DNA of 64,000 bases from Spirochaetia bacterium (lineage in GTDB: Bacteria > Spirochaetota > Spirochaetia > DSM-27196 > Salinispiraceae): the NCBI GenBank assembly GCA_038204425.1, contig JBBRCZ010000004.1, positions 134,585 to 198,584 of the forward strand. The letters are read 5' to 3'. Positions 26,363 to 43,680 of this stretch are shown here, one piece after another. The stretch's first letter is position 1. Each line of letters starts with the position of its first letter. The position numbers and the translations under genes were made by a program. The notes beneath the pieces are model-generated. The model was given only the letters and a program-made list of their open reading frames with translations. It was not told where the DNA came from and ran no database searches.

Positions 26363-27871
26363 TTAACGCACAGGAAGAACAGGAAGCTCGCCGACCTTGG
26401 CTACAACGTCAAATTTCTGCAACGAAACTCCCAGTCGAAGTGGCCGAGTCAGTGTTGCTGGGTAGAAGCCTTCTTGGTTAAGCTCGTCAACTTGTATTTC
26501 GGCTACATTCTGGTACTGATTGCCATTGGCTTGTTTTCTCAATACTAACATAATGCTGCCTTTGTCCAGTTTGTATTCCTTCTTTGGATAAATGAGAAGT
26601 CGCTCTGACTGAGCCTCGATCAAAAAGGCATTGATCGCATTGATGCGCAAATACTCATCGAGAGCCCCTTGATAGCTAGAACTTCTTTGAGCAAAGCTTT
26701 CATTTTTTGACTTGAGTTCGCTGATGAGAGAATTTCTAGCTTCTATAGCTTTCCAGAATCGGTCAAAACTAATTGTAGTTGAGTTTAAGACTTCAAAAAA
26801 TCGGCTCTCCAACTGACTCAACACAGCAGGAACGTCATTGACATAAGGGGTTTGCTTGAGGACTGTCAATAGTCTCCGGTAGCCAGCGATCACCGCATTG
26901 ATTTGTTCTGTTTCTTCTCGCACGACCAAGCCAGCTTCGTAATACTGGGGTGCAAGGCTAATACCATTACTTGGACGTGTTAGTTCACGTTGCAAAAAGC
27001 TAAGCAGCTCGGTATCAGCCACACTTGGGTTGTAAAGGCTCGTTAGCCTATCAATTTGTTGTTGTATAGTCTCAGCGTAACTTTTTTCCAAATTGAGCAT
27101 AAATGACTGTTGCCGTTGATCCCTCACGTCGGTGTCTCGTACCAAACTGTTGTAACGACTTTCATATGCATCTATCAGACGCTGCTTCTCTTTATCGTTG
27201 AGAGTCCTCTCAGCGTTAATGATTACTTCTTGCTGTCGAGCCAAGGTTAGCTTGTTCTGGTCTATTTTGGCTAGAGCTTGTTCGCTCTCAGCTATTTTTT
27301 GGCGAAGTTCGACAATAGCTGGATTGGCCGCCCTCGAACTCGTTTGAGACCTAGCAGCAAAGCGTCTGTTTAAAGTCTCAACTTCTTTGTCCAACCTTAC
27401 TTGATCAAGATATCTGCTGCGCGCCAAGCTTAACTCTTGCTCGTTAGATTGTCGAATTTTGCCCAGATCCAAATCGAGATTTTTTTGAGCCAAGGAGAGT
27501 TCTATGTTGAGCTGATTAATTTCACCTTGAATTGTATTGGCTTTTTCTAAGATGTCTCTTAGGTTGATACTCTCAAATTCACTGGCTTTGATGCTTACCT
27601 GATTGTTCTCTTTCTCAATATTGTTGTTTATCAAAATAGCTATAGAAATAAAGGCTGCGACCACAAACAAACAAACACCAGCCACCAAAAAATTGCGGTT
27701 CTTCTTGGTTTTGGCAAACTCGGTCTCAAGGACGTAGTTGTCCTTGTTGCTCTTGTATTCTTCGATTAACTCACGCAAAAAGAAGGCTTTAGTACTCTCT
27801 ATTGACTCAAGTGATCTAGATTTGTCGGTCCCAAATCCAGATTCACTTGCTATTTTTCGTTCATGGTCCAT
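26363..27871 (-). CDS. membrane-anchored coiled-coil hypothetical protein
   Basis: One TM near N-terminus then long heptad region; start ATG 27871 overlaps end of cyclase gene. Confidence 0.7.
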   Translation of the reverse strand: MDHERKIASESGFGTDKSRSLESIESTKAFFLRELIEEYKSNKDNYVLETEFAKTKKNRNFLVAGVCLFVVAAFISIAILINNNIEKENNQVSIKASEFESINLRDILEKANTIQGEINQLNIELSLAQKNLDLDLGKIRQSNEQELSLARSRYLDQVRLDKEVETLNRRFAARSQTSSRAANPAIVELRQKIAESEQALAKIDQNKLTLARQQEVIINAERTLNDKEKQRLIDAYESRYNSLVRDTDVRDQRQQSFMLNLEKSYAETIQQQIDRLTSLYNPSVADTELLSFLQRELTRPSNGISLAPQYYEAGLVVREETEQINAVIAGYRRLLTVLKQTPYVNDVPAVLSQLESRFFEVLNSTTISFDRFWKAIEARNSLISELKSKNESFAQRSSSYQGALDEYLRINAINAFLIEAQSERLLIYPKKEYKLDKGSIMLVLRKQANGNQYQNVAEIQVDELNQEGFYPATLTRPLRLGVSLQKFDVVAKVGELPVLPVR

Positions 27872-29595
27872 ATACCCTTCCAATCGCTAGGGGCAAGTTT
27901 AGATCGTGTTCGATCCTCAAATAACCTGGCCGAAGTAAACTTTATCTCACAAAATAATTTATGTGCCTTAACCCAGTCACCTTGATAATAGAACTGTAGA
28001 GCTTGGGAGTAGTTTTCAAAGTCAGTAGCCATAGCTGTATCGACGGAGGACTTTTGAACCGGAAAGTAGACACGCTTTCCGGTAGTCTTGCCCTTAACCA
28101 AGACTTGGTCGAGTTCAAGAAATACAAATTCGTTGGTACCAGAAAGCACCTCGTCCCTAATGAATTCTGAGACTATCATCGGGACTTTATAGATTCTGGT
28201 CAGTCCTTCAAGTCTTGACGATGAGTTTACGTTGTCGCCAATAACGGTATTGACCATGCGCTCGCGACTACCAATGTTGCCGTAAAATACAGTGCCGCCG
28301 TCTATACCAACACCAACTTCCAAAAGAACCGCTTCGTAGACGCGCTCTTCACTTTCGGTAAGCGACCGTTGTTTGAGCAACTCTGAACGACGATCTGACA
28401 TTTTTTTACGCAGACTGTCGGCAACGGCCAGCACTTCAAAACCAGCCCTAACTGATTGCAGTGACTTGTTTTCGCCTTGCTGTGGCAAAGCACCAAAGAC
28501 GGCCAGCACTGCGTCACCAATGATTGATCCAATGTCACCGTTGTAGGCATGTATTTTGCTGATCGCTTGATTGTAATGAAGATTTAGCAGTTTAATGATG
28601 TCGGTACCAAGGGTTTCCGTCATAGCAGTAAAGCTTTTGATGTCGCTAAACATGATCGCCAGTTCACGCCGGTTGCCTTCCAAGCGGATTTCACGCTCTT
28701 TATAGGCCTTGACGGCAACGTCCCTCGCAACAAACTTTTTAAAGATATTGAGCAGATTATTGATGGTGCTGGTCAAGGTATTAATTGAGACACCGAGATA
28801 AGAAATTTCGTCGTTAACCGCTCCATCTAGTTTAATGAGTTCCATACTCTGGTCTTGCTGCATCGCCATGATTTGGGTCGTCATGCGACTTACAAAGCGC
28901 AAGATATATCTAATCAGGTACGTTCCAACCAAGACCGACACCAAGGTTAAGGCAAAGATCAAGAGACTTATGTTGGTAAAGGTCCGTACCGCTGGCTCAT
29001 AAAACTCATTCCACTCTTCGGCTCTGATAAAAAGCAGCTTCCAGTCAGGATGGTAGCGATAGACTCCAAAGTACCGTTCGCCATTGAAGTCAAACTCAAC
29101 TGCCCCGTCCTCTTTGCCGACGGTTCTCTTTTGCACAATTTCTGAAAACACTTTTTTGTCCGTAAAGGCCGAGTGAGTCGCAAGATCAATACCGGCTCCA
29201 CCAGCCTTAAAGTCCAAAAGACCGTCTTCACTTATGCCGAGCACGACTGATTTTTGATTGGTAAAACTAATGCGGGAATATTCCTCTATTTGGCCAAAAT
29301 AGAGATCCACACTTTGGCCTGAGTCCTTGTAAATCCTATATTGACTGGACGAAAAAACATAAACGTCCTTCAAGTCTCTAACCAAAAGTTCAGTGGTTAG
29401 TTTGATTTGTTCACCGCGATTAAGCGTCAAATTGATAAAATTGCTAATAAAATTTGAGGCCAACAAGAACAAAATGAATATTGCCGTGATTTTTAGCGAA
29501 ATAGGTGTAACCCTAACACCATTCACTTTTTTTCCAAATATGCCAGATTGAGGTGCTATTTTTTTCAACGGTGCCCCCATAACAGACTGTGCCAA
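27850..29595 (-). CDS. membrane-bound class III nucleotidyl (adenylate/guanylate) cyclase
   Basis: Two TMs flanking a periplasmic domain, HAMP-like linker, IMFSDIKSFT, IIGDA, VIGDNVNSSSRLEG, VKGK; start may be TTG 29568. Confidence 0.9.
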   Translation of the reverse strand: MAQSVMGAPLKKIAPQSGIFGKKVNGVRVTPISLKITAIFILFLLASNFISNFINLTLNRGEQIKLTTELLVRDLKDVYVFSSSQYRIYKDSGQSVDLYFGQIEEYSRISFTNQKSVVLGISEDGLLDFKAGGAGIDLATHSAFTDKKVFSEIVQKRTVGKEDGAVEFDFNGERYFGVYRYHPDWKLLFIRAEEWNEFYEPAVRTFTNISLLIFALTLVSVLVGTYLIRYILRFVSRMTTQIMAMQQDQSMELIKLDGAVNDEISYLGVSINTLTSTINNLLNIFKKFVARDVAVKAYKEREIRLEGNRRELAIMFSDIKSFTAMTETLGTDIIKLLNLHYNQAISKIHAYNGDIGSIIGDAVLAVFGALPQQGENKSLQSVRAGFEVLAVADSLRKKMSDRRSELLKQRSLTESEERVYEAVLLEVGVGIDGGTVFYGNIGSRERMVNTVIGDNVNSSSRLEGLTRIYKVPMIVSEFIRDEVLSGTNEFVFLELDQVLVKGKTTGKRVYFPVQKSSVDTAMATDFENYSQALQFYYQGDWVKAHKLFCEIKFTSARLFEDRTRSKLAPSDWKGIWTMNEK

Positions 29596-29787: not shown

Positions 29788-30390
29788 ATGAGAATCGCAT
29801 GTCTTGATGTTGAAGGTGTTTTGTTGCCAGAAATCTGGATAAACGTGGCGCAAAAGACCGGGATCGAAGCACTCAAGCGGACAACCAGGGACGAACCCGA
29901 CTACGGCAAGCTGATGGGTCAACGAATAGCAATCTTGCGTGGCAATCGCTTAACAATTGCCGATATTCGTAAAGTTATTTCGCAAATGGACCCGTTGCCA
30001 GATGCGCGGAATTTTTTGGACAAGCTACGTTCGCAGATGCAGGTCCTTTTGCTATCAGATACCTTTGAGGAATTTGCTCAGCCACTGATGGAAAAACTTG
30101 GCTGGCCCAGCTTGCTCTGCAATTCTTTGGTTTTGGATACTGAGGGCTACTTAACGGATTTCGTTCTCAGGCAAGTTGATGGAAAGAAAAGGGCAGTTGA
30201 AGCCCTCAAAGGACTTAATATCGAAGTCTATGCAGCAGGAGACTCATACAATGACCTCTCGATGATTAGATCCGCGGATAGAGGCGCCTTCTTTCAGCCG
30301 CCAGCGTCAATAGTAGAAGAATGTCCGGAAATTCAAGTAGTCAAAGACTATTCTGGTCTCCTTGATTTTCTCACTCAAGGTTTGGTCTAA
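29788..30390 (+). CDS. thrH: phosphoserine phosphatase/homoserine phosphotransferase (HAD)
   Basis: CLDVEGVLLPEIW, TTRDEPDY, LSDTF, AAGDSYND. Confidence 0.92.
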   Translation: MRIACLDVEGVLLPEIWINVAQKTGIEALKRTTRDEPDYGKLMGQRIAILRGNRLTIADIRKVISQMDPLPDARNFLDKLRSQMQVLLLSDTFEEFAQPLMEKLGWPSLLCNSLVLDTEGYLTDFVLRQVDGKKRAVEALKGLNIEVYAAGDSYNDLSMIRSADRGAFFQPPASIVEECPEIQVVKDYSGLLDFLTQGLV

Positions 30391-30412
30391 GAAATAGGTA
30401 GCAACTGAAACT

Positions 30413-31582
30413 ATGTTAGCAGTCGATTTCCCCAGTTCATTTCTAAAATCCTCACTTTTGCTAGAGCTTTCGCCGGCGGCGCTGCTGACCATCGATCATT
30501 CTGGCAGAATTCTTGCCTACAACCAACAGGTATTGCAGGTCTTAGAGCTAAGTCCTCAGGAAGTGAGCGAGTGGGGTGATACGCTCTATAAGTTTGTTGC
30601 GCCAACTCAAACCGCCACGCTCTTGGAGCACATAAAGCACTGCTTAGAAATTGAAACGCGTACTACGCTCGATTTAACACTTACTCTTAGGACTGGAAAA
30701 GAAAAGCCGATGCGCTTGAGTTCTAGGCGTATCGCGGCAAGTCTTCTGCTTGCAGCTGGCTCACTAGACACCGAGCTCTTGATAATGTGTTCTTTGGTAG
30801 AAATACCTGATCTGCGCCTTCTCGAGGACAAACTTTTACTAGCGCGTGAGCAGGAAAGCCAGGTCGACCTGATGCGCGCATTGCAAATAAACAACCTTAG
30901 TCACGACCTCAAAACTTCTCTCCACGCTATCTTAAATATTTCCAATCTCCTCTTGCAAACTGATCTCAACAAAGATCAACGTATTTGGATGGAGTCAATC
31001 GCCGAATCTTCTCTTAGTTTGGTTGGCATTGCTAATGAGCTGACAAACGATAGCGCACTGGGCGACCACCAAGAGGGTTTTACTAGTTTTAACATACGCA
31101 ATTTTTTATCTGCTATTGACGCTCTATATGCGCCGCAAGCCCTTTCGTTGGGGCTTGAGTGGCAGGTGCACTTGCAAAACCATCAGGACAGTGCCGTTTA
31201 TCAAGGCGAACCAAACCGACTACGTCAGATCCTAGCCTATTTGATTGACAACGCGCTACGCTACACTGAAGAGGGCAGAATTGACATCTTGTTGCATCGC
31301 AAAGACTACCACGAGTACCTTTCGGAATTTACGTTTGAAATTCGCGATTCTGGCCCAGGCATAGGCATTAAGGAACAAGCTACCTTGAGTAGCTTGTTGG
31401 AGTCCAAAGAGGTCAGTCATCTTGCTAGGTCAGGTCAAAAAAACGTGGGTCTCAGTCTGGCGCGAGATTTGGCCAGAAACCTTGGAGGCCAGATTTACTT
31501 CGAAAGCACGCTAGGCATGGGAAGTTCCTTCTTTTTGTCACTTCCCTTGCATCGAGAAAGCAGCCAGCCTGCCACGACTTAG
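30413..31582 (+). CDS. PAS-domain sensor histidine kinase (cytoplasmic, orphan)
   Basis: LSHDLKTSL H-box, RLRQIL.YLIDNALRYT N-box, DSGPGI G1, GLSLAR G2, STLGMGSSF. Confidence 0.88.
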   Translation: MLAVDFPSSFLKSSLLLELSPAALLTIDHSGRILAYNQQVLQVLELSPQEVSEWGDTLYKFVAPTQTATLLEHIKHCLEIETRTTLDLTLTLRTGKEKPMRLSSRRIAASLLLAAGSLDTELLIMCSLVEIPDLRLLEDKLLLAREQESQVDLMRALQINNLSHDLKTSLHAILNISNLLLQTDLNKDQRIWMESIAESSLSLVGIANELTNDSALGDHQEGFTSFNIRNFLSAIDALYAPQALSLGLEWQVHLQNHQDSAVYQGEPNRLRQILAYLIDNALRYTEEGRIDILLHRKDYHEYLSEFTFEIRDSGPGIGIKEQATLSSLLESKEVSHLARSGQKNVGLSLARDLARNLGGQIYFESTLGMGSSFFLSLPLHRESSQPATT

Positions 31583-31611: not shown

Positions 31612-33696
31612 CTATTTTGAAAATATTGATCGCAGGACGTGTCTAGTAATGGTATAAAGTGGCGGAACACCTTCGGAGGCATCCAGGCGTTCTGATAAGT
31701 TGCCGCTTGGATCAAGTGGAAGATCGGAAACATAGTAGAGAAATCGCGCACGCGTAGAACTGTCCAACAGCCCAGTGTGTATCGACTCTAACATCTGACG
31801 GTGGTAGTACATTCCTTCCATCTCTATACCAACGACGTCCCACATTCGCTGATAAAACAGATACATCAACTTGTTTTGCATTAAAGTGCCCTTGACGGTC
31901 AACATCGGACCACGCAAGATTGACCGGCCTTGAGCCATAGAGCTAAGCGAGTCGATTTCACTCTCATTCTCGCTCGCCAAGGGTATAAACAAATCGTGCT
32001 CTTGTTCGAGAAAAGAACTTGGCACCAATATGTCGCCTCGCTTGCCTTGCAGAGAGCCGGCTTTGCCGAGAAAGTTTGCACTTTTAATAGTACGACCAAA
32101 CAGCAGAATGAGCTGATGGATGATGTTTTCGGCCTGCTCGCCAAAAGCAAAGTCGATATTAACGATAAGCAGATTATCTAAGTTTTTGCCGAGCTTGATG
32201 CTTGGGTCAACTTTCTGATTCTTTATCAACGACGGCCGTATCAACTGCACTTCTATGCCAGTGCTTGCCGTAGCTCCGAGCCTAACTATCCCGGCTTGTC
32301 GCTCGACTTCAAGCATTTGCTCTTCACTACCCTCGTGACTTCTAAAATAGTCTCGTGCCAATGCATATAACTGGTCTGACTTCTCTACCCACTTTTGTCG
32401 AGCAAACGGGTGATCAATGGACTCGGCCCAGGCCAGTATCTCTGGAGCATGGTTAGTAAACCAAGGGTTCAGACAGTTACTTACGGAATGAGTATTGCTA
32501 GAAATAATGTGCACGTGAACAGTGTTATCTAGTTCGGCTGGATCACAGCCAAAGAGCATTCTGGTGGCTTCGCCAATTTGACTTGACCACTTAGCAAAGT
32601 CCTTAAGATCGTAGCTTGTTTGGCGCGTTCTGACATCAATAGTAAACATTTCTCGATGGTTAACGAGATCCCATACCCGCCCTATTGGATCATTGGGCCA
32701 GACTCGCCTGATTCCTGCCACCCATTGCTGGGGAAAACCGATCTCCAATAGCAAAGCATCCTCGCCTTTGGCAACCTCGTTCTTGGCTGCTATTTCTGGG
32801 AGCACTTGAAGCGCGGCAGTGCGGTTCAAGAAATCTTTAATTTTTTGAACCCCTTTAACGGTATAGATAAAGCGACGAATTTTGCGCGCCTCGGTAGCAT
32901 AGAGGCAAAGACAGCTAACCAAGTCACAAATATCAGACATGCCGACCCGCGCCAAAACCATGTCTTTTCCGGGCATTACTTCCCAAATTGACCTTCTGCG
33001 ACCGTCGGTTAGAACTGCCTTAAAAAAGAGATCGGGGTCTTGATAGACACTAGGGAGTTCGTCCCGGATTAAAAACGCAAAGGTCGTTGTAACATTTTTT
33101 GGAAGTCGCCTAACTGCATAGTCTAGCGCCGAAGCGTCTAAGACTTCTTTGCTGCGCACAAAAGGATGCAAGGCAGGTTCTAGACCCTGATACAAGGGCA
33201 AGAGCTTTTGAATGCTGATGTAGCCGTAAGCAACTGCCCTGACGAGTTCGGCCGTAAAGAGCTCAAATGCACGAAAGATGCCTTGACGTTCTCTTAAGAT
33301 ACTTGCAAGTGCCTGAGAAAAGGCCAGCTCTTGCCGAAGCAGATCCAGCATTTCCTGCTGGCTAAAGACCAAGCAATCACATGACTCAAGTGCTCGAATA
33401 CCATAGTGCCGAGGTAGGTCAAAGATGGCCTCCCATTCTCCAAAGTAGTGCAAGGTTTCAATGACACTTACGTGTTCTGAGTTGCCGTTGACTTTGTCAG
33501 TTACTTCAACCTTGCCACTAAGGATCAAAAAAACGCGCTTGTCATGAACATCGTCTTGTTCAATGATACGTTCGTTGGCATCGTAACGCATTTGATCGCA
33601 GCGCTTCAAAAATAAGGTCATCCTCGTCGGGCTGATGAATCTAAACGGAATAACTTGGCGCACAAGATTCACCAAAGTCGGGCTATCCTTGGCCAT
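31612..33696 (-). CDS. cNMP-binding domain fused to AMP-nucleosidase/PNP-fold domain (DUF6909-like)
   Basis: N-terminal FLILSGKVEV...FGEWEAIFDLPRHYGIRA; C-terminal GKAGSL..GDILVP, GPMLTV, GIEMEG, VSDLPL; ATG 33696 below AGGAG. Confidence 0.75.
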   Translation of the reverse strand: MAKDSPTLVNLVRQVIPFRFISPTRMTLFLKRCDQMRYDANERIIEQDDVHDKRVFLILSGKVEVTDKVNGNSEHVSVIETLHYFGEWEAIFDLPRHYGIRALESCDCLVFSQQEMLDLLRQELAFSQALASILRERQGIFRAFELFTAELVRAVAYGYISIQKLLPLYQGLEPALHPFVRSKEVLDASALDYAVRRLPKNVTTTFAFLIRDELPSVYQDPDLFFKAVLTDGRRRSIWEVMPGKDMVLARVGMSDICDLVSCLCLYATEARKIRRFIYTVKGVQKIKDFLNRTAALQVLPEIAAKNEVAKGEDALLLEIGFPQQWVAGIRRVWPNDPIGRVWDLVNHREMFTIDVRTRQTSYDLKDFAKWSSQIGEATRMLFGCDPAELDNTVHVHIISSNTHSVSNCLNPWFTNHAPEILAWAESIDHPFARQKWVEKSDQLYALARDYFRSHEGSEEQMLEVERQAGIVRLGATASTGIEVQLIRPSLIKNQKVDPSIKLGKNLDNLLIVNIDFAFGEQAENIIHQLILLFGRTIKSANFLGKAGSLQGKRGDILVPSSFLEQEHDLFIPLASENESEIDSLSSMAQGRSILRGPMLTVKGTLMQNKLMYLFYQRMWDVVGIEMEGMYYHRQMLESIHTGLLDSSTRARFLYYVSDLPLDPSGNLSERLDASEGVPPLYTITRHVLRSIFSK

Positions 33697-34675
33697 TTTT
33701 GGCTCCTGTGTCCTTGCCAACAATCAGTGGACTGTGGTGGATGATTTCAGCTGTTGATTCTATGTTGAGGAATTTGTGGTAGGCATTCTGAAACGAATCA
33801 AACTGCGTATACTGGTGGATGTATTCCTCACGCAAAGTTTCTTCATTGCGAACGTACACAATTGGATTGAGCAGTACTTGTCTAACCTGATCTTCGCTAA
33901 TGCCTCGCGCTGCCAAGTAACGCATAAAGGTTAAATCAGAAAGCTTTAGTCCAAGTCTTTCATCGGAACCCAAGTAAGTAACACCATCTTTGATTTGTTC
34001 AAAAGGACCCTTGGAATAATGAAAAGCGCGCGCCGCGTCAAAGCGCGGGTTGAGAATGCCGTTGAGACACAAAGCGTCGTGCATGCGTTCTACCAATTGT
34101 TTAAAGTCAACATAGTTCATCGATGTTCTAAAGATCATTACGGCTATGTCAGTGTTTTTGGAATTTTTGTGGATTAAGGCAGGAATATCGTAGTTGACTA
34201 TAAAGAGGTCTCCGTAATGTTTTACGTTTTGTCCACTGGCGATACAAACATTGTGATTCTCGACCCAAGTGTCAAATAACTGTTCTGGTTCCAAATTGAG
34301 GATCTCAAGCGCTTCAAATGCTCCTACTATTGGCGCGTCCTCAAAACGAATGCCAAACCAATTACTAAATCTTTCTTTCATCGATTCAGTAAAGGCTGCC
34401 TTACCAGACACTGCAAAGTGCAGCTTAACGGCGTAGTATTGTTCGACAATGTGTTTACCAACGATAAACTCGCCAGGAAAGTTGGCCAAAAAAACTAGTT
34501 TGATTGAGGCTTGGTTAACATTGGCCTCTTTGACTATCTTGAGAATGGTGCTCTCAGCCAAGACACCATTGGTTTCTGGCCGTAGATAGACAAAAATGTC
34601 TTGTTCGTCCTCGCGATCACTAGGTCCTGGATAAGGCAGTATGAGCGTGGGTAGAATACTATCGCCTGAGGTCAT
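33683..34675 (-). CDS. divergent nucleoside-diphosphate-kinase-like protein
   Basis: IFVYLRPE resembles NDK xFxxIKP; FHYSKGPFE resembles the catalytic-His motif VHxSxSPxE. Confidence 0.55.
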   Translation of the reverse strand: MTSGDSILPTLILPYPGPSDREDEQDIFVYLRPETNGVLAESTILKIVKEANVNQASIKLVFLANFPGEFIVGKHIVEQYYAVKLHFAVSGKAAFTESMKERFSNWFGIRFEDAPIVGAFEALEILNLEPEQLFDTWVENHNVCIASGQNVKHYGDLFIVNYDIPALIHKNSKNTDIAVMIFRTSMNYVDFKQLVERMHDALCLNGILNPRFDAARAFHYSKGPFEQIKDGVTYLGSDERLGLKLSDLTFMRYLAARGISEDQVRQVLLNPIVYVRNEETLREEYIHQYTQFDSFQNAYHKFLNIESTAEIIHHSPLIVGKDTGAKNGQG

Positions 34676-34686
34676 GATGCTCCATT

Positions 34687-35382
34687 CTAATGCCCGAAAT
34701 CATAATCTGACACAAATATTTCTATGATTTTCGGCAATAGTTCGTTTCTTTCTATGTTATCCGTGCCACCAAGTCTCAATATATCTACTTTTTTAAAGCT
34801 TATTCCGGCGCATGAGGCAAATAGTGCTGTACAAAATAGAAAGGCCGCCATATCAGATGGGCCTTGAGGAAACGGCGCTTGAAGATCGCCTCGACCAATG
34901 GCCAAGTAAAGCGGCGTCAGAACAAAACTTGCGCACAGTAACGACAGCCAAGCAATTCTGGAAACCAAGGCTGTGACAACAAAAACGATCATAGAGAGCA
35001 TAAAAGGGAGCGGCAGCATAACCAAACAGGCGCCAAAAAAAATAGCAAGGCTCCAGTGGCCACCAAAGTGGCGTAGCACCGAAAACCGTGCGCCGACTAG
35101 TGCAGCTGCGCTCAGAAAAAAAGAATAAATGAACCAGACTTGGCTAGTTTCTGTCAGAAATGCAGTTACAGATGCAAGTAAGACAAGCACCATGGCAAGC
35201 ATAAAATACCAAGTACTTACCAAAATTGTCTTGAGGCGCTTTTTTTCTCCTTGATCGGACTGGTGGTCAGAATGCTGATCAGACAGCTGGCTCGAGCTTT
35301 TAAAAAGTTTGTCGACAAATTCGACTACCGGGAGTCCCCCAGCCAAGTAAGAAATCAGTATCAAAAAAATCAGAACTAGCAT
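34687..35382 (-). CDS. PlsY-like polytopic membrane protein with eroded catalytic motifs
   Basis: ISYLAGGLP start and PlsY-like TM layout; GSGNxGxTN, GGKG and HxxN motifs absent. Confidence 0.6.
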   Translation of the reverse strand: MLVLIFLILISYLAGGLPVVEFVDKLFKSSSQLSDQHSDHQSDQGEKKRLKTILVSTWYFMLAMVLVLLASVTAFLTETSQVWFIYSFFLSAAALVGARFSVLRHFGGHWSLAIFFGACLVMLPLPFMLSMIVFVVTALVSRIAWLSLLCASFVLTPLYLAIGRGDLQAPFPQGPSDMAAFLFCTALFASCAGISFKKVDILRLGGTDNIERNELLPKIIEIFVSDYDFGH

Positions 35383-35389
35383 GGCTTAT

Positions 35390-35418
35390 ATCCTACTGCT
35401 GATAGTCTTCAATCACAA
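35390..35418 (-). promoter_or_regulatory. sigma70-type promoter TTGTGA-17-TAGGAT, 7 nt above ATG 35382
   Basis: Consensus-like; would let the three downstream genes be transcribed independently of pheST. Confidence 0.4.
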
Positions 35419-35428
35419 GACCAGCTGA

Positions 35429-37177
35429 CTAATGCGCTGCGAGTACCATTTCGGCGGCCACACAAGGCACGGTTATTCCCCAGTTTTCGAGCACGCCTGG
35501 GTGAAGCTCGCCAAATACCCCGATTGATTTTCCGTTGACGATGATTTCCGCGCGACGTCCTGGCATGTACTCTTTTTTATCGCTTTCTTTGAGCACGTAG
35601 TCCCAGCCGAGATAATACATCAAAGCTTGCAGATGAGCGTTGATAAAGTTGAAGTCAGCATCACTCTTGGCTGCCAAAAAACCAAGGCTTGTTTCTGTTC
35701 TAGAACCGTAGTTTTCTTTTCGATCCTGAATTGCGGTTTTGCCTACTTCAAAGACTAAGTGCGGATACGGAGCGTTGGCGCTAAAGGCCTCGGCATTTAG
35801 CAAGCAAGGTACTATCGAAGCGCGAACAAACTCAAAGTTTTCTGACATCGGGTTAGAAATCTGAACCAAACCAGGGTTAGGAATAACGTCGCCCAAGCTC
35901 TCGCCTTGGCCAAGTGCGGAAGTTTTTTGAGCCAAATCAGGGTCCATTTTCCAAATATAGTCTCTAGCAGATCCTAAATAATTGAAAATCATCTCTTGAT
36001 AGCCAAGCCCAACCATCAGACTTTTGACTTTTCGGGACAAAATTTCGGTATCAGTCAGGCGACCCACGGTAAAGGCACGGGGCAGCTCTGACTCAAAACT
36101 ATCCATGCCGCGACCAATCATCACGTCTTCGATTATGTCGACCTCGTGCAAAAAGTCGTTGCGATACGCGGCCGGCAATAAGGTCACATTTTGGCCTTCT
36201 ATGCTTGCTTGGTTGCCCATGCGTTGCAAGGCTTCAACAATTTCTTTGCCACTGAGCTCTTGGCCCAAAAGTTTATTGATGCTGGCAATGTTGGTAGAAA
36301 TTGCTTTCTGAAAATACAAGGGACTAACAACTTTTGTGCCAAAGACGTTCTCACTGGGATATTCGATCTCTATGTGCTCAATTGTAAAACCCATATCCGC
36401 CATATCACAAGCGATAATGTTGCATGCCAACATGAGACTTTGCAGTTCAGTTCCCGTTAGTTCGACAAAAAGTTTATCGTCACCGAGCTTAACTGCGCCC
36501 AAGTCATTTGAGTTAATAATGGGCGGAAAACTGAGCACATCACCCTTGGCGTCAAGCAAGATAGGATAGTTTTTGGCTTGAGCAAGAATATGCCCAAACT
36601 CCTTGCCTTTGGGATGATCACGAAGGATTTCGCTGAGCGTTGCTTTTTTCTCCATACCGAGCGCTACAAATGAAACCGAATCTGGTGCAACGGCTTTATA
36701 GCTGACAGGAAAATTGATCAAATCTGCTCGATAGATGCCCATTGCGATGCCTTTGCGCTTTTGGCCAAAGTTCCAACACAGCTTTTCTTGTGACTGAATT
36801 AAGCTCGCAAGCATGGTCTGATCGACCGCTTTGCCTTTGGCAACAAATCCTGCAACAAAGGGCCTGACTTCTTGTACACTCAGATCAACTTTGATCGTTG
36901 GCATTGATTTTTCGACACCTGGTAGGTGACCAGAAAAAAAGTTCCATGGCTTGGTGACGCCAGTTTGATAAGTTTTAATACAGCGTGCCAATCCTGCGGT
37001 GCTCCACAGGTCGGGTCGATTAGTGTCGTTCAACTCTACTTTTATAGTTCCTTCGGCATTGAGCGCCTCATCCAGTTCTGCCTTGGCAGCAGGAAACACT
37101 TGCTCAAGCTCGCTCATACTTGGCTTCTTGCCAAGGTAATTACTCAGTTCTGCGTAGTTTACTTCTATTTTTGGCAT
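35429..37177 (-). CDS. pheT: phenylalanine--tRNA ligase beta subunit (short, archaeal/eukaryal type)
   Basis: NDTNRPDLWS, SFPPIINS, YRNDFLHEVDIIEDV, FGELHP; real start MPKIEV at 37177. Confidence 0.95.
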   Translation of the reverse strand: MPKIEVNYAELSNYLGKKPSMSELEQVFPAAKAELDEALNAEGTIKVELNDTNRPDLWSTAGLARCIKTYQTGVTKPWNFFSGHLPGVEKSMPTIKVDLSVQEVRPFVAGFVAKGKAVDQTMLASLIQSQEKLCWNFGQKRKGIAMGIYRADLINFPVSYKAVAPDSVSFVALGMEKKATLSEILRDHPKGKEFGHILAQAKNYPILLDAKGDVLSFPPIINSNDLGAVKLGDDKLFVELTGTELQSLMLACNIIACDMADMGFTIEHIEIEYPSENVFGTKVVSPLYFQKAISTNIASINKLLGQELSGKEIVEALQRMGNQASIEGQNVTLLPAAYRNDFLHEVDIIEDVMIGRGMDSFESELPRAFTVGRLTDTEILSRKVKSLMVGLGYQEMIFNYLGSARDYIWKMDPDLAQKTSALGQGESLGDVIPNPGLVQISNPMSENFEFVRASIVPCLLNAEAFSANAPYPHLVFEVGKTAIQDRKENYGSRTETSLGFLAAKSDADFNFINAHLQALMYYLGWDYVLKESDKKEYMPGRRAEIIVNGKSIGVFGELHPGVLENWGITVPCVAAEMVLAAH

Positions 37178-37196
37178 ACTATTTACCTCGTTTAGT

Positions 37197-38750
37197 TCAG
37201 TCTCTGCGGCGCAAGCGCACGCTCTCGATGTTGGGCGAGAACAGCTCACGCAAATCGTTGATGCCAAGGTGCATCAACGCCATTCTGTCGATGCCCAGAC
37301 CCCAAGCCAAAACCGGTACGTCGATACCCATTGGAATCGTGACTTCTGGCCTAAGAATTCCTGCGCCGCCAAGTTCAAACCAGCCTAAGACCGGATGTTT
37401 TATATGAACTTCGACTGATGGTTCGGTAAAGGGAAAGTAACCAGGAACATACCTGACCTCAGTAGCGCCAGCCAGTTCTTCTGCAAACATTTTGAGCAAT
37501 CCCAAAAGATTCTTTAGATTAACATCGTTGCCAAGAACGATGCCCTCTGTTTGATAGAAATCCGAAAGGTGCGTTGCATCCACTTGGTCGTAGCGGAAGC
37601 AGCGCAAAATTCCAAAGTATTTTCCTGGAATCTTGGCTTTATGCAGCGTCTTGGCTGACATTACGGTGCCTTGGCTTCGCAGAATTAGTCGTCTTGTAAA
37701 GTCGCGATCAAACTTGTAGTTCCATCCCCTACTGCCCGTCCCGGCGCCGTTTTCGTGCGCCGCTGCTACTTTGTTGAGAAACTGCGGCTCAATTAAGGCT
37801 GCCTGGCGTGGCTCTTTTACGTAATAGACGTCATGAATATCGCGTGCGCTATGAAATTGAGGCATAAAGAGCGCATCAGAGTTCCAAAACTCGGTTTCTA
37901 CCAAGGGGCCGTCAAACTCTTCAAAACCAAAACCAACTAGTCTGTCTTTAACATGGTCCAAAAACTCGCAATAGGAGTTTCGTCTTCCAAGCAAGGCCCT
38001 AGCGGCCTGCACACCAATATTAAAAGGCCTAAAGGTCTTCTTGCGCCAAGATCCATCTTTGAGCATTGCACTAGTCAGTGAGTTAATTTCTTCGCCAGTA
38101 ACGCCTGCTTTTTTGGCCGCCTCGCGAAGCTCATTAGAAAAATTTGTAAACTTATACTCAACGGTTTCGCGGTCAACCAGTCGAAACATTGCACTTCCGG
38201 CGCCACGTTTTTTGCTAACCGGTTCTAGCAGTGCAAGCTGCTCAGCTGACAGGCTTGAAGCAGCAAGGGTCTTGAGTTCGGCCTGGCTTGCTTGTTTGAG
38301 TATCTGGCTAAGCTTGGAAAAACTAGGCGGAAGATCATTAAGCAAGAGTGTCGCCTTTTTTTCGCCGCTCATGTTTGCAATGCCAAGCTTGGAAAGCGTA
38401 CCAAAAGCGGAGCCAACATCTTTGTTCTCTAGCCCCGCATGTTGCGCTAGTTCAGGAAGACTTGAAGGACCAAACTCAATCAAAGCTTTGTGTACTTTTT
38501 CTTCAGCTGTGCCTTCGAGTCCAGCTTTTTCACCAAGTTCGGTTAGTTCATAAAAAATCTCAGTGCTGCGACCATGTTCGACAACCGCGCCCTTGCCCTC
38601 AAGCCAGTTTAAGGCCTGATTAGCCTGCCCAACATTGTAAGCCAATGTTGATTCAAGCTTGGAAGAACTGATGATGGTATCTTCTGTAAAACCTAAAAGA
38701 ACCCGAACCTCAAGTGGGTGCAGGCTCCGTGCGAGACTGTTGACGTCCAT
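37197..38750 (-). CDS. pheS: phenylalanine--tRNA ligase alpha subunit (long, archaeal/eukaryal type)
   Basis: FWNSDALFMPQFHSARD, FRYDQVDATH, YFPFTEPS, AWGLGIDR. Confidence 0.96.
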   Translation of the reverse strand: MDVNSLARSLHPLEVRVLLGFTEDTIISSSKLESTLAYNVGQANQALNWLEGKGAVVEHGRSTEIFYELTELGEKAGLEGTAEEKVHKALIEFGPSSLPELAQHAGLENKDVGSAFGTLSKLGIANMSGEKKATLLLNDLPPSFSKLSQILKQASQAELKTLAASSLSAEQLALLEPVSKKRGAGSAMFRLVDRETVEYKFTNFSNELREAAKKAGVTGEEINSLTSAMLKDGSWRKKTFRPFNIGVQAARALLGRRNSYCEFLDHVKDRLVGFGFEEFDGPLVETEFWNSDALFMPQFHSARDIHDVYYVKEPRQAALIEPQFLNKVAAAHENGAGTGSRGWNYKFDRDFTRRLILRSQGTVMSAKTLHKAKIPGKYFGILRCFRYDQVDATHLSDFYQTEGIVLGNDVNLKNLLGLLKMFAEELAGATEVRYVPGYFPFTEPSVEVHIKHPVLGWFELGGAGILRPEVTIPMGIDVPVLAWGLGIDRMALMHLGINDLRELFSPNIESVRLRRRD

Positions 38751-38846: not shown

Positions 38847-41800
38847 CTACCGGTATTTTTCCATCATATCAATAATTCTTTTCATTCTAAAACGCAAGTC
38901 AACTTTCTGTTCTTCAGGAAGCAGCTTGCCAATGTTTCCCATCACCGAGAACGTATTCCCGATTAAAGCACCTTCATCTTTTGCCTGACTGAAAGGCATA
39001 GACTTTGCTGCCGAAGGATTGTGTTTTAGGATTTCGCTACGAATATTAGACAGACGCTCAGGAATCTTTTGCGCCTGCGCTTCACGAACTTTATCGACCG
39101 GTAACTCTTTGGTAAGATTCAAAAGATAATCGAACAGTTTAGCTTGAGCCTCGGCTGATGGGACTCCCGACTTAGCTTCAGCTCGCATTGGTTTAGAAGT
39201 ATTGTTTGGCGCTGGAGCGGCTCGCCTGTCTGGCTGCTTGGCTTGACCTTGACTGACAGTTGGCGTCTCTTCCAGCACGCCGGGGACGATTTCGGCAGAA
39301 AGATCATCTTCGCGACCAAAGTCGGTAAAGAACTCGGGGCTCTGAAACAAACTATCGGGTTCAAGTTCCCCATCAATCGTAGCTGGCATTCGCCTGCCTG
39401 AGTCGCGACTGCGTTCTTGGGCTTCTTCCTCTTGGGCTTCTTCCTCTTGGGCTTCTTCCTCTTGGTCCTTGTGCGCTACGTGCCTCGCCGACTCATGTGG
39501 CGCTGGCTCGTCGTCAAAGCTATCAAGGAAATACTCTTCCAGATCTAGGTCTGGGTCGCTGGACTCTGCTTCTAATACGTCCGCAAAGTTCTCTTCTATT
39601 TCTTGGAACATAGATTCTTCCTCTGGAGTGGGTTCAAGGGTGGTGCTCTCTATTGAATCTTCATTTTCGTTTTCAGGCAAGCCTTGTTCATCGTTGTCAC
39701 CAAGTTCTGGTTCTTGTTCTGGTTCATCTATGTCATCAGCTTCAGCTTCTGCTTCTGCAGGCCCAAAGTTGGCATCGGGTAATGCTTCTTCTTGACTTTG
39801 GTGACGAGCATCTACTGGTGGGTCTGTTTCTGGGTCCTGATCAAAGCGTGGATACTCGGGATATTTAGGGTAGTCCGGCACCTGAGCACTTTGTTGTCGT
39901 ATTGCTTCTTGTTGTTGCTCTTGCGCGACCGGTGCCCTTGCCTGCTGTTGCTGAGGTGCAGCTTGCTGCTGAGCCTGTTGGGGGTAGTTGTTGGGTGACT
40001 GCTGTTGCTGAGGTGCAGCTTGCTGCTGAGCCTGTTGGGGGTAAGCAGCTTGGGGACTTTGCCGTGGTTCTTGCTGATAGGAAGGGATCGAATTTTGAGG
40101 TTGATAGCGAGGTTCCTGAGGCTCTGGGTTGGCCGGCTTTCTGCTTGCAGGCTCAGGCCTTGATGGACTAGCTTGCGAAGATGGTGGGGGCGCCTGCGCC
40201 GGACTAGGTGAAGGCGAGGTAAAATTGCCGCCCGCTTCGTCGATTAAGCTCATCAAACTTGGTGCCATGCCGTCAAGTTTTTCTTCTACCCTCCGTATTA
40301 CATCCTCACTTCGTTCTTCTTTTTTTATAATTGGCTCAAGGTCAATAATCGGATCTTCTACTAGGTCTTCGTCACTAAACTCGATACTCATGTCACCAAA
40401 ATCCAGAATAGGGACAGAATCCGCCTCAATTTCTTTAGCCTGTGCGCTTTCCAACTGTGGTTCAAGAACCTCTTTACTTTTTCTCTTTTCGCCGAGACCT
40501 AAGGCGCCTAGTCTTTCTAGACTCTTTTCCCAAGCTCTACCGTGTTCACTGGTAAAGGCCTCAACCGCCTTCTCGTACAGCTCGAGACTTTCGTTGAGCG
40601 CAGTTATATCGTCAGGATTGGCTCGTTTTCCTTGTAAACTGATCAGCTCATCTGCGGTGTGCAAGGCTTGGCTGCGGTTGCCCATTTGCTGATAGACCAT
40701 TGCTAGCAGAGAAAGGAATCTGCCGTCGTCAGGAAATTGGCTCTTTATCACTTCAAGATGGTTTTTGGCTCTTTCGTACTGTTCAGATTCGATCAAGTAG
40801 CTAACCAGTAAGTAGTGGGCCTCGGCATTTTCGGGGTGCAACTCAACCAGGTCTTGAAGTTCGTAGATCGCTTCGTTAACTTTGCGCTTTTCAAACAAAA
40901 TTTTGGCGACTTCAATTCGATAGTCGTGGTAGTCAGGATGTAGAGCACTGAGCTCAAAAAAGCATTCTTCGGCCTCGGTGCTCATTCCTTGCCGGTAGTA
41001 AAGCAAGCCTAAAGCCTCCAAAATCCGAGGGGAGTCTTTTCGCTCTTCTCTGAGTTGGGCGAGTAGGTTCTCGGCTGCTTTGTACTGTTGATTTTTTTGG
41101 TACTTAAAGGCCAGCTGCATGCGCAGATCAAAGTTCTTGGGATTACGTTCGACTAAACTTTCTAGTTCTTTGAGAGCTTGCAGGGTATCGTCGGACGATT
41201 CTAGGATTTGGCCGAGATTGACGGCAGCTTTTTCATAGTGAGGATTACTGCTCAAAGCTTGCTTGTAGTAGCCAACTGCTTGCTCGGTCTTGCCTTGTTT
41301 TACCAAAGTGGTCGCAATATTGTTGAGCGCCGTAAAATTGTCAGGTTGAATAGTAAGAATCTCTTTAAAGGACTCAAGTGACTCGTCATAGCGATTCTGG
41401 CGCTGCAGCGCAATGCCAAGATTATTGTAGGCGTCAACCCAACCGGCTTTGACTTTGATGGTCTTTCTAAAAGCCTCTTCTGCGTCTTCAAAGCGCTGCA
41501 AAGTCATGTAACTGTTGCCAAGATTATAACGCAAGGTAGGGTGGTTTGGATCGCGCGACAATCCCTCAAGATACGTCTCGACTGCTTTTTCGGGTCTATC
41601 CTGCATGTCATAGAGCGTACCGAGATTGTTATAGGAAAGAACAAAATCGGGGTTGTGACTAATTGCTAGAGTATACTCGCTGACGGCAGAATCTATTTCA
41701 TTTTTTTGCTTATAGACGTTGCCCAAGTTGTAATGGATATCTCCTCGTTCTCCTGCCTGAATCAATGCTTTGCGCAAAGCATGTTCAGCTTCTTCCAATC

Positions 41801-42065
41801 TACCTTGCAGTCGATACAAACAGCCCAAGTTGTTGAGGGCTTCGACATTGACTGGGTCGAGCTCCAACGTGCGTTTAAACTCGTTTTCGGCCTCGGCATA
41901 GCTTCCGCGATTACCATAAATGGTTCCGAGCATAATACGCGGCGGAATCAAACGTGGGGCTTCCTTGAGAATTTGCCTGAGCAAGTTCTCGGTGACTTCG
42001 TAGTCTTGAAGCGTGTAAGCGCTTTTGGCGCGGCTAAAAAGGTCCTCTATGAATCTTCTGTCCAT
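38847..42065 (-). CDS. large TPR protein with long Pro/Gln and acidic low-complexity region
   Basis: Many canonical TPRs (ALNNLG, HYNLGNVY, SYNNLG); real start probably MDRRF at 42065, 4 nt after the upstream stop. Confidence 0.85.
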   Translation of the reverse strand: MDRRFIEDLFSRAKSAYTLQDYEVTENLLRQILKEAPRLIPPRIMLGTIYGNRGSYAEAENEFKRTLELDPVNVEALNNLGCLYRLQGRLEEAEHALRKALIQAGERGDIHYNLGNVYKQKNEIDSAVSEYTLAISHNPDFVLSYNNLGTLYDMQDRPEKAVETYLEGLSRDPNHPTLRYNLGNSYMTLQRFEDAEEAFRKTIKVKAGWVDAYNNLGIALQRQNRYDESLESFKEILTIQPDNFTALNNIATTLVKQGKTEQAVGYYKQALSSNPHYEKAAVNLGQILESSDDTLQALKELESLVERNPKNFDLRMQLAFKYQKNQQYKAAENLLAQLREERKDSPRILEALGLLYYRQGMSTEAEECFFELSALHPDYHDYRIEVAKILFEKRKVNEAIYELQDLVELHPENAEAHYLLVSYLIESEQYERAKNHLEVIKSQFPDDGRFLSLLAMVYQQMGNRSQALHTADELISLQGKRANPDDITALNESLELYEKAVEAFTSEHGRAWEKSLERLGALGLGEKRKSKEVLEPQLESAQAKEIEADSVPILDFGDMSIEFSDEDLVEDPIIDLEPIIKKEERSEDVIRRVEEKLDGMAPSLMSLIDEAGGNFTSPSPSPAQAPPPSSQASPSRPEPASRKPANPEPQEPRYQPQNSIPSYQQEPRQSPQAAYPQQAQQQAAPQQQQSPNNYPQQAQQQAAPQQQQARAPVAQEQQQEAIRQQSAQVPDYPKYPEYPRFDQDPETDPPVDARHQSQEEALPDANFGPAEAEAEADDIDEPEQEPELGDNDEQGLPENENEDSIESTTLEPTPEEESMFQEIEENFADVLEAESSDPDLDLEEYFLDSFDDEPAPHESARHVAHKDQEEEAQEEEAQEEEAQERSRDSGRRMPATIDGELEPDSLFQSPEFFTDFGREDDLSAEIVPGVLEETPTVSQGQAKQPDRRAAPAPNNTSKPMRAEAKSGVPSAEAQAKLFDYLLNLTKELPVDKVREAQAQKIPERLSNIRSEILKHNPSAAKSMPFSQAKDEGALIGNTFSVMGNIGKLLPEEQKVDLRFRMKRIIDMMEKYR
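39415..39465. repeat. 15-bp in-frame tandem repeat (QEEEA x3)
   Basis: TCTTGGGCTTCTTCC x3 + TCTTGG. Confidence 0.9.
39942..40043. repeat. 45-bp perfect direct repeat, period 57 (YPQQAQQQAAPQQQQ x2)
   Basis: Copies at 39942-39986 and 39999-40043. Confidence 0.9.
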
Positions 42066-42069
42066 AACT

Positions 42070-43680
42070 TTATCGTGCAGGTCGTGCACTGGCCTCCTTA
42101 GACAGGCTTCGCTTAAGGTGAAGTCCGTATCGTGGGTCGTTTGATGTATCGTAGCTTGCGATCCTAAGATAATAGAGCCGACCGTTAAGCAGCCCATCCA
42201 AGCGTAGTTCAGTGACATTTCCGACGTCAATTGGTGATGGTCCTTGGTCGGCCTCGTCACCAAAATATTGATCGGCTTTGGTGCCGTAGTAAACCAAGTA
42301 TCCCTTGATATCGTTGCTTGGCACTTTGTTCCATCTAAGCATTAGGGCGCCATTTTCTGGACTTACGACAAAACCACCTGGCGCGGGCGGCGGTGGATCG
42401 GGACGATAGACAATTTTTATAGATTGCAGCCCCGGTGATTGGTCACCACTACCATCCGGCAAAAACTCCACCTTGAGCCACAAGAATTGCCCACTGTTGT
42501 TTTCTGTTATTGGCAGACCCGGCTTAAAACTGATCCAATCTGGGTCATCCCTGCCCACCATACCAGCCATTTCTCCCATCTTGTAATAAAATAAAAGATC
42601 AGCTTGTTGGCTGCGCTGGTAATCGGCGTTGATGGTTAGCAACTTGCTGCCGACGCCAATTTCTCTAAAATTTATTGCGTTAAAAATCACAAAGGCAGGT
42701 CGATTGTCAAAAGTTTCTAATTGAGGACTGTCGACCCAGCGCTTGCTCAATCGCAATTCATCCAAAAAACCATTCAGGTTTCTACCAATATGAACCTCTG
42801 ATTTACCCCGTTCGCCGACGTAGGCCTGCAGAATGCTTGCGGACTCTCGGCCATCAAGCGTGGCGTAGGTGACACCCTCTGGCCTGCCATCGACAAGATA
42901 CTCAAGCAATCCGCGTCTGGCATTGTAACGCAGCAAGTGATGTTGCCAACGACGTGGAAAGACCGACCGAATGCCTTTTAAGCTAATGTTTTTTATGTCA
43001 AGTCCAATCTCTCGGTTGGAAAGATTCTTGGTCTGAACAAAAAAATTCTCGAAGGTCCAAGTCAAACGTTTGTCTTGCAATGCAACGCGGATCTTCTGGG
43101 GAATCTCTTTGCCCTGAAGTCGGCTATAGCCTTCCCAATAGAAAATCTCCTCGCCTTCTTTGCCAATGCTGCTGAACAGCCAAAACTCAAGGCTAAAATC
43201 GCCAATAAAAGTACCTGGTTCAAAGAGCGAACCTTGCCGGGCTTCAAAGCGAAGTCCTTCTGGCTGAGAGCTAAACAAGGCTGCGCCGTCGCCGTACTTC
43301 TTTTCGCGCAGCTGGACGGTTGCAGAGGAACCAAGCAGCGCCCAATTGGGGTGATAATTTTTTTGGTTTTCTTTGTTAAAGTGCAAGAGTAAATCTGTCT
43401 GCGCGTCGCCAAGGTACTCAGCTGCCCGAATACCAAGCTCAGTTAGGCCCCGGTGACCTTTCCTAAGTTCCAAACCCTGATAACTAGATTCCAGATTTAC
43501 CGCGGCTTGGTCGGCATTGCTAAATTGCACGAGCAAGTTCTGACCGGACTTCCATTTGCTCGGATCGCCAGCAATTCTGAGTTCAATTGTTTCTTCCAAA
43601 GCGGACAAAAAACCAGCGCTTATCAAGAAAAGAACAAGAGTTAGAACAAACGAATAGGAAATTGTCTTTTTTTGTGTCAT
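42070..43680 (-). CDS. exported LamG-like jellyroll + fibronectin type III protein
   Basis: Signal peptide; DFSLEFWL, WQHHLL, YLVDG, GFLDELRLS (LamG); PPAP..LRW..GYLVYYG..GLLNGRLYY (FN3). Confidence 0.8.
   Translation of the reverse strand: MTQKKTISYSFVLTLVLFLISAGFLSALEETIELRIAGDPSKWKSGQNLLVQFSNADQAAVNLESSYQGLELRKGHRGLTELGIRAAEYLGDAQTDLLLHFNKENQKNYHPNWALLGSSATVQLREKKYGDGAALFSSQPEGLRFEARQGSLFEPGTFIGDFSLEFWLFSSIGKEGEEIFYWEGYSRLQGKEIPQKIRVALQDKRLTWTFENFFVQTKNLSNREIGLDIKNISLKGIRSVFPRRWQHHLLRYNARRGLLEYLVDGRPEGVTYATLDGRESASILQAYVGERGKSEVHIGRNLNGFLDELRLSKRWVDSPQLETFDNRPAFVIFNAINFREIGVGSKLLTINADYQRSQQADLLFYYKMGEMAGMVGRDDPDWISFKPGLPITENNSGQFLWLKVEFLPDGSGDQSPGLQSIKIVYRPDPPPPAPGGFVVSPENGALMLRWNKVPSNDIKGYLVYYGTKADQYFGDEADQGPSPIDVGNVTELRLDGLLNGRLYYLRIASYDTSNDPRYGLHLKRSLSKEASARPAR

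Follow-up and report, generated by a model that had tools for sequence, protein, structure and literature searches.

Three co-directional genes downstream of pheT in a spirochaete: a plsY relative, a protein of the nucleoside diphosphate kinase fold and a cyclic nucleotide-binding DUF6909 protein

We analysed three adjacent genes, called A, B and C here, which occupy positions 31,612 to 35,418 of a 64,000-nucleotide stretch (the window) of contig JBBRCZ010000004.1 from a Spirochaetia bacterium. An earlier note on this DNA had read them as three co-directional genes with a promoter-like element of their own that could form a cyclic nucleotide-controlled module. All three lie on the minus strand: gene A (35382-34687, 231 aa, an intact open reading frame (ORF)), gene B (34675-33683, 330 aa) and gene C (33696-31612, 694 aa counted from the ATG at 33696). 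The ORFs of the window leave 11 bp between A and B and overlap by 14 bp between B and C, which confirmed the described layout. As an operon of three genes the locus is no discovery; what remains of it is two unstudied proteins, B and C, both variants of known folds, and the new, testable item is the rebuilt active site of B.

The proteins encoded by the three genes

Gene B matches no Pfam or NCBIfam family above its cut-off. Its structural model is confident (predicted local distance difference test (pLDDT) 92.4), and its best structural match is a nucleoside diphosphate kinase (NDK), 1xqi (VIA Z 9.6, root-mean-square deviation (rmsd) 4.5, 151 residues aligned). The top nine VIA rows range from Z 8.4 to 9.6, three of the chains being titled NDK, and unrelated rows begin at 7.8; trypanosomatid doublet-microtubule chains also appear among the fold matches, with no sequence link in the PDB profile search. 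NDKs rank first with Foldseek as well, if weakly (E 0.06), and sequence searches of the PDB with B profiles gave nothing significant, the best related row again being an NDK (E 0.098). Profile searching from B leads first to a second spirochaete-like group and from there to long NDKs, of which several have PF00334 matches; those long NDKs that keep the full site (the full-site group) compare with canonical Ndk at an hhalign E of 3e-11. B shares with the uncharacterised long NDKs both the fold and an insertion of about 100 residues after the HY motif.

Residues were compared between 146 main-group sequences (P0121-P0269, lengths 290-460), 16 sequences of the second group and 30 full-site sequences. 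Both smaller sets were chosen by rank and length from the profile search; P0351 was counted as full-site in the residue table and groups with the second group in the tree. Aligned through the full-site group, His219 of B (codon at 34021-34019) falls on the phosphohistidine of NDKs and is present in 145/146 main-group and 16/16 second-group sequences. It is accompanied by S221 (143/146), D230 (146/146) and Y81 (145/146), so that Tyr52, His118, Ser120 and an acid at position 129 of the NDK and NME proteins are retained, with Asp replacing Glu129; the relay H118-E129-S120 is described in the part of PMC8080780 used here. The fold and the kept NDK histidine, both proposed for B before, are thus supported.

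The rest of the site differs. Where 29 of the 30 full-site sequences carry Lys, B and its relatives carry R32 (145/146 and 16/16), and where 29 carry Asn they carry R216 (141/146 and 15/16), which corresponds to the replacement of both Lys12 and Asn115 by arginine. The Kpn motif, found in 24/30 full-site long NDKs, is absent from both groups of B (0/146 and 0/16). At the columns of Arg88, Thr94 and Arg105, the full-site group has R in 26/30, T in 22/30 and R in 28/30, whereas B has F191, M198 and a variable position. N36, E41, N65, Q149 and K152 are newly fixed in the B subfamily. In a quick tree, one branch with an SH-aLRT support of 99 splits 39 sequences with the arginine site from 25 full-site sequences.

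These comparisons place B in a subfamily of long NDK-fold proteins from spirochaetes whose active site has been rebuilt. Given the arginines at positions 12 and 115 and the loss of the Kpn loop, it is unlikely to be a nucleoside diphosphate (NDP) kinase; it probably handles a phosphoryl group on His219, with a substrate other than an NDP. A role as stand-in for a missing Ndk was considered and rejected: in a survey of all 99 genomes of the order, canonical Ndk is found in 92, the present genome included, and B coexists with it. We found no publication on uncharacterised spirochaete NDK-like proteins, in a search that mostly left subscription journals outside and did not extend to supplements. 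Among the sequences reached, P0324, P0329, P0338 and P0357 are 1400-2500 aa long and contain 6-8 stretches matching both the B profile and Pfam NDK, that is, tandem long-NDK repeats; two of them also carry EF-hands. Two genomes (L109:6206-7201 and G032:C13:1207-1674) have a second, weak match to the B profile beside a B with the arginine site, possibly a coexisting full-site long NDK.

Gene C encodes a cyclic nucleoside monophosphate (cNMP)-binding domain (33331-33591, minus strand, about residues 36-122; PF00027, E 4e-14, 52.8 bits against a cut-off of 27.5) followed by a DUF6909 part (31618-33213, minus strand, about residues 162-693; PF21850, E 3e-110, 369.6 bits against a cut-off of 27) that covers the whole profile, 1-535 of 535. 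In the model (pLDDT 94.1), residues 1-139 match cNMP domains, a middle region at about 140-365 was barely tested by fold searches, and residues 366-694 have the nucleoside phosphorylase-I fold. This last part aligns with DeoD (Z 19.8, rmsd 2.5, 215 residues), MTAN (Z 19.6, rmsd 2.5, 205 residues) and Amn (Z 17.6, rmsd 3.7, 234 residues), and these, with Udp, are near ties. A cNMP domain joined to a fold of the phosphorylase and AMP nucleosidase type, as had been suggested, is therefore what the profiles and the model give. Relatives of C number 245 at E <=0.001 among 8000 candidates scored.

The cNMP domain appears intact. Its cassette is kept in aligned relatives (G86 in 118/118, E87 in 117/118, R96 in 118/118) and matches that of PycTIR (G86/E87/R97) and CRP, as given in the part of PMC11224242 drawn on here. 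Fold scores do not separate ligands, since binders of cyclic AMP (cAMP), cGMP and cUMP tie.

In the catalytic part, N401, M626, E627, S657 and D658 are invariant (118/118), and N401, M626, E627 and D658 register with N205, M404, E405 and D428 of Amn. R25 and R88 of DeoD (counting Met) bind phosphate. With motifs registered by hand, they fall on S404 (118/118) and F542 of C, and the F542 column has no Arg among its four commonest residues; the hydrolases Amn and MtnN lack these arginines too, a point in favour of hydrolysis rather than phosphorolysis in C. The ligands of the AMP phosphate in Amn, R381 and K436, correspond to T604 and to the variable N666, and because they are not kept we do not class C as an Amn (Amn residues from the consulted part of PMC9584410). 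Nor is there a family-level sequence match (hhalign E 0.41 against Amn, not significant).

Compared with the PF01048 enzymes Amn (E. coli 1T8S, K. pneumoniae 7UWQ), DeoD, Udp and MtnN, C has the same fold at 366-694, the same first-loop Asn and the same Met-Glu and Ser-Asp-x-Pro-Leu motifs; it differs by an identity of 10-17% and by the invariant K545, R553 and Q607, which are particular to it. Amn further resembles C in its extra N-terminal region and its lack of phosphorylase arginines, whereas C has a cNMP domain and a middle region of 225 residues. C is a full-length member of DUF6909, but other members stand alone, with about 560 aa and no cNMP domain, and the fusion was found in Spirochaetia matches. 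Such stand-alone proteins form a separate family in the phylum, f40 (L100:7158-8843, L101:6355-8040, L102:6572-8242, L104:6440-8107 and L105:6061-7734); a pattern search found the GKAG and EMEG motifs kept in them and did not show the VSD motif near the C-terminus. In genomes G437, G438 and G440, the C homologues are frames of about 660 aa with the DUF6909 match split in two, and in that genus the fusion may be altered.

Sequence and model together suggest that C is probably a cyclic nucleotide-regulated hydrolytic purine nucleosidase. Its ligand would most likely be cAMP, given the many class III cyclases of this genome (14, next to 17 cNMP-domain matches); the direction of control and the substrate are conjectural in the same way. 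The genome (95.6% complete) has no match to TIGR01721 (Amn) and carries a PNP and an MtnN. Replacement of another PF01048 enzyme by C was tried as an explanation of its distribution and dropped, there being no clear difference in the counts of such (untyped) matches between 15 genomes lacking C and 15 bearing it. None of 50 pattern matches between viral contigs and the C alignment was confirmed. Within the limits of the literature search given above, and in part by titles only, we found no publication using the name DUF6909 and none describing a cNMP domain fused to an AMP nucleosidase.

Gene A scores below the family cut-offs of PlsY (PF02660, 23.8 bits against 24.1; TIGR00023, 23.4 bits against 137.2). 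Hydropathy predicts about six membrane helices, in agreement with the topology of PlsY. The motifs HGSGN.G.TN, GH, GGKGV and HRKNI, all kept in five intact plsY sequences, are missing from A: motif 1 (Ser35, Asn37, Thr41, Arg45), His92, motif 2 (GGKGV) and motif 3 (His177, Asn180) are replaced, and these carry the substrate-binding residues according to the portion of PMC5700162 consulted. That A is PlsY-like and devoid of catalytic motifs, as first noticed, agrees with these results.

An intact plsY is found on another contig of this genome, C14 (TIGR00023, 160.8 against 137.2 bits), and it is the best match of A (29% identity, E 1e-20). In a tree of six sequences, A stands beside this copy with a branch of 4.29 as against 0.19. 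Intact plsY also lies just upstream of B in four genomes of the same family (G332, G380, G493 and G495); a DUF1295 gene intervenes in two of these. Altered copies like A were not encountered elsewhere: a protein search with A gave a single match, A itself, among 2744 candidates, A was matched in 2/31 genomes (A itself and one intact plsY, with no degenerate copy in the 30 related genomes), and the plsY profile run on 80 loci around B found plsY in 3, all strong matches, and no degenerate A. From its best match, its position and its lost motifs, A is by sequence a local, decayed duplicate of plsY, whose acyltransferase activity would be lost with the missing residues.

Gene order and transcription

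The genes belong to a core chromosomal stretch. LeuRS, EF-G, ThrH, PheRS, UvrC, HolA, LexA, RpoN and PyrG are encoded in the window, its composition is even, and GC content and GC3 match those of the neighbours, in line with the core-genome setting and the lean towards housekeeping expressed before. Directly upstream of A are pheT and pheS (35429-38750, minus strand), for a PheRS of the archaeal type (pheT_arch TIGR00471, with a long PheS). Downstream, thrH and a PAS histidine kinase gene (29788-31582, plus strand) converge on C, and a membrane class III cyclase (PF00211; 27850-29595, minus strand) ends about 2 kb below C on the same strand, as noted previously, beyond these two opposite-strand genes.

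An element TTGTGA-17-TAGGAT (35390-35418, minus strand; TTGTGA at 35418-35413, TAGGAT at 35395-35390) stands 7 nt above the ATG of A (35382). Its sequence, spacing and position are as the earlier note gave them; its standing as a promoter is not upheld. It has 8 of 12 consensus bases and was unlisted by a scanner whose bar is 9/12 and which found 9 sites against 10.6 in shuffles. Sites of the 8/12 grade occur about 2.5 times per kb on the minus strand, which puts the element at chance level, and the AGGA of TAGGAT falls at the expected Shine-Dalgarno position of A. The window scan listed no terminator-like site in the 46-nt gap between pheT and A, so that transcription reading through from pheS-pheT is no less likely than initiation at a separate promoter, and A, B and C are probably transcribed in this way.

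Linkage was examined in three sets: all 99 genomes of the order, 351 genomes sampled from the class (314 of them outside the order) and 401 sampled from the phylum. Within the order, B is present in 93/99 genomes (50/50 of those of high quality), C in 73/99 and both in 70. Of these 70, 56 have C after B on the same strand at a distance of 5 kb or less, and 41 leave no room for another gene. Yet 23 of the 93 B-bearing genomes have no C match, as against 3 of the 73 C-bearing genomes with no B match. Outside the order, 113 of the 314 genomes have a B-family match (a few of them weak), 31 have C and 22 have both; one of the 22 pairs is adjacent, 7 are separated by 95 kb-3.2 Mb on one contig and 14 lie on different contigs. 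B occurs there with no C in 91/113 genomes. The phylum sample gave 27 genomes with B, 18 with C and 5 with both. A metagenome scan with B gave no confirmed match; for close relatives of C, four metagenome loci had neither a plsY-like nor a B match by tblastn, two of them having too little upstream sequence for a decision. Those relatives of B and C that carry a name belong to free-living spirochaetes, among them Spirochaeta lutea and Salinispira pacifica.

Neighbours were counted at 80 B loci, many of them short. The commonest were pheT (41) and pheS (34), followed by thrH (33), C (24) and the histidine kinase (14), and pheT adjoins B directly in most genomes of the order; in the 31 loci lacking pheT the neighbours varied (45 of 56 neighbour ORFs scanned, plus 4 more). 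An opposite-strand DUF1707 gene separates B from C in G332, G495, G421 and G417, so that C must have its own start there. This gene, LiaF-like in three cases, recurs (L084:7325-7900, L087:7118-7765, L090:6926-7501, L091:6770-7357, L093:4861-5472, L099:9052-9672); in G424 it neighbours B only, in G110 C only.

The cyclase follows another pattern. It has Ser in place of the usual purine-selecting Lys, a position occupied by Lys or Arg in the other 13 cyclases of the genome; one relative shares the Ser. Its orthologue is present in at least 42 of the 99 genomes of the order (up to 13 candidates scored in each), 33 of them with C, and 9 genomes have the orthologue and no C match. Among 16 regions downstream of C, the cyclase was found in 2, and fusA was reached with no cyclase in 8 others, as also in G210; nine C-bearing genomes thus lack the cyclase between thrH and fusA. 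The flanks of the 80 B loci (8 kb or less) contain the orthologue in 1/80 and any cyclase in 2/80, figures that understate regional synteny. The cyclase is a regional neighbour outside the A-B-C unit, and these absences speak against dependence. The order pheS-pheT-B-C...thrH...cyclase...fusA is an inherited block, and adjacency inside such a block is weak evidence of shared function. The co-occurrence of B and C that had been proposed as a check thus holds as linkage within the order, whereas most pairs outside it are apart, with the cyclase often absent; and the three-gene cyclic nucleotide module did not survive, A having no degenerate counterpart beside B in the loci examined and the adjacency of B and C being largely that of one order.

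Weighing the explanations

We consider that the locus is best explained, with a probability of about 0.55, by housekeeping enzymes kept in an inherited gene order, with three separate histories and no part in defence. The core stretch runs pheS-pheT-plsY-B-C, with A at the plsY position here, and continues with thrH, the cyclase and fusA. A is by sequence the degenerate remnant of a duplicated plsY, and the working copy lies on another contig. In B, the His-Ser-acid relay and Tyr52 are kept around a site where the ribose-binding Lys and Asn have given way to two arginines and where the β-phosphate-binding Arg88, Thr94 and Arg105 are lost with the Kpn loop; His219 would probably still handle a phosphoryl group, with a substrate that is not an NDP. 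In C, a cNMP, most likely cAMP, would bind the intact N-terminal cassette and switch the phosphorylase-fold domain, which, judged from its observed fold and motifs, would act as a hydrolase on the N-glycosidic bond of purine nucleotides or nucleosides. B and C would be neighbours through the inherited gene order of one taxonomic order, neither needing the other.

Several points weigh against this explanation. The adjacency of B and C is strong within the order (56/70 genomes), and their stop and start codons overlap here. C-bearing genomes outside the order carry B in 22/31 cases, above the base rate of 113/314, with the reserve that kin are not independent. Wherever the cyclase orthologue shares a contig with C it is downstream on the same strand (15/15, at 0.7-78 kb), which suggests an old regional gene order. 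The reading frame of A is intact, which a retained but changed role would explain as well as recent decay would. As regards the enzymes, direct profile comparisons of B with E. coli Ndk and of C with E. coli Amn, DeoD and MtnN were not significant, and the residue maps are indirect, resting on structure matches, on motifs registered by hand and on the intermediate long-NDK group.

Of the alternatives, the one that survives best, although we regard it as unlikely, makes B and C a working two-gene module of the order, with A incidental: B would supply, phosphorylate or break down the (cyclic) nucleotide sensed or cleaved by C, as in a cAMP-gated route from cAMP to AMP and on to adenine and ribose 5-phosphate. 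It draws on the adjacency and overlap just mentioned, on the rarity of C apart from B (3/73), and on the site of B, in which the positions touching the phosphate of cAMP in the NDPK-C/cAMP structure (Lys29, Tyr69 and His135) are preserved and the Kpn loop, said to matter more for non-cyclic nucleotides, is lost (both from the part of PMC11431768 used here; the conversion from NME1 to NDPK-C numbering is our own). Such a module is harder to reconcile with the 23/93 genomes of the order and 91/113 outside it that have B and no C, with the single adjacent pair among 22 and the seven lying 95 kb-3.2 Mb apart on one contig, with the DUF1707 gene that splits the pair in four genomes, and with the fact that thrH and pheT are linked to B as tightly as C is. 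A complex prediction for B and C scored 0.01 against a mark of 0.32, which is not evidence either way.

Somewhat less probable again is that B is a pseudo-enzyme, never phosphorylated, whose role would be to bind a partner or a ligand carrying phosphate, possibly in translation, A and C being as in the housekeeping explanation. Human NME6 offers a parallel, as it keeps active-site residues and yet forms no phosphohistidine according to the excerpt of PMC8597243 consulted. The loss of the R88, T94, R105 and N115 equivalents and of the Kpn loop would fit, as would pheT as the most frequent neighbour (41/80). Yet His219, Ser221 and Asp230 are near-invariant across two divergent subgroups, and the new invariant polar residues R32, N36, E41, N65, Q149, K152 and R216 look more like a rebuilt than a relaxed site.

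A more specific proposal, which we hold to be a long shot, joins the two proteins through one ligand: B would be an NDK-fold enzyme rebuilt for a cyclic nucleotide and C would be switched by the same cNMP, giving a self-gated circuit of cAMP disposal or nucleotide-pool control. His219, flanked by R32, Y81 and R216, may attack or hold the cyclic phosphate, as a phosphodiesterase with a His nucleophile or a cNMP-dependent phosphotransferase, and C may cleave the resulting monophosphate to base and ribose 5-phosphate. The proposal builds on the adjacency seen in the order and on the agreement between the kept residues of B and the cAMP contacts of NDPK-C. If true, it would add an undescribed circuit to free-living spirochaetes rich in cyclases and give the NDK fold a chemistry new to it. 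On the favoured explanation, C would be an enzyme of the nucleotide-salvage type under direct second-messenger control and would give DUF6909 its first function. B is in any case a clean example for testing how the NDK fold takes on new phosphoryl chemistry around the same histidine, and both proteins are soluble, confidently modelled and directly assayable.

Defence is very improbable. C would be an effector of the Pycsar or Cap17/Detocs kind, activated by the nearby atypical cyclase and depleting nucleotides on phage infection. The resemblance lies in the logic of a cNMP sensor fused to an enzyme that cleaves glycosidic bonds with a phosphorylase fold, in the cNMP domain, which matches that of PycTIR in structure (Z 18.7, tied with others), in the Ser of the cyclase and its match to PycC models (E 1e-13), and in the presence of the cyclase in the same region in relatives. 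The PADLOC matches are to generic cNMP and cyclase domains: those of C cover residues 28-136, with weak PycTIR matches (E 4e-5), and its catalytic part has no PADLOC match at E 0.1. In Pycsar a cyclase is coupled to an effector of the TIR or membrane type (PMC11224242, in the part consulted), whereas the effector part of C is DUF6909 and no conserved cyclase-effector cassette is present, the cyclase being itself a membrane protein that is set apart from C by two opposite-strand genes, lies 0.7-78 kb away in 15 relatives and is missing in nine genomes. The purine nucleoside phosphorylase domains of the ATP nucleosidases Cap17 and Detocs form a defence-associated clade (bioRxiv 10.1101/2023.01.24.525353, part consulted). 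C lies among core genes, single-copy and vertically kept at a fixed locus in most of the order. PADLOC, run on this window, returned generic domain matches for 42 other ORFs scanned, together with a single partial match to a type I restriction enzyme at a distance of 29 kb.

Least credible is a single functional unit of A, B and C with the pseudo-PlsY as membrane anchor or sensor: the close co-directional packing and the intact, roughly six-helix frame of A speak for it, and the 80 B loci with no degenerate A (plsY in three, all strong matches), the 2/31 genomes that match A and the abutment of pheT on B in most of the order speak against it.

Three further features of the window were noted. 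Upstream of pheS, at 38847-42263 (minus strand), is a gene for a long tetratricopeptide repeat protein whose C-terminal half is of low complexity, rich in Gln and Pro and in acidic residues, and similar-sized ORFs precede pheS in relatives. At the end of the window, at 62760-63968 (minus strand), a segment of higher GC (0.555) with the partial type I restriction match is possibly the edge of a mobile element. A protein of about 500 aa with a coiled-coil-like middle and no family above cut-off is encoded directly after the cyclase (26363-27883, minus strand), as also in locus L022.

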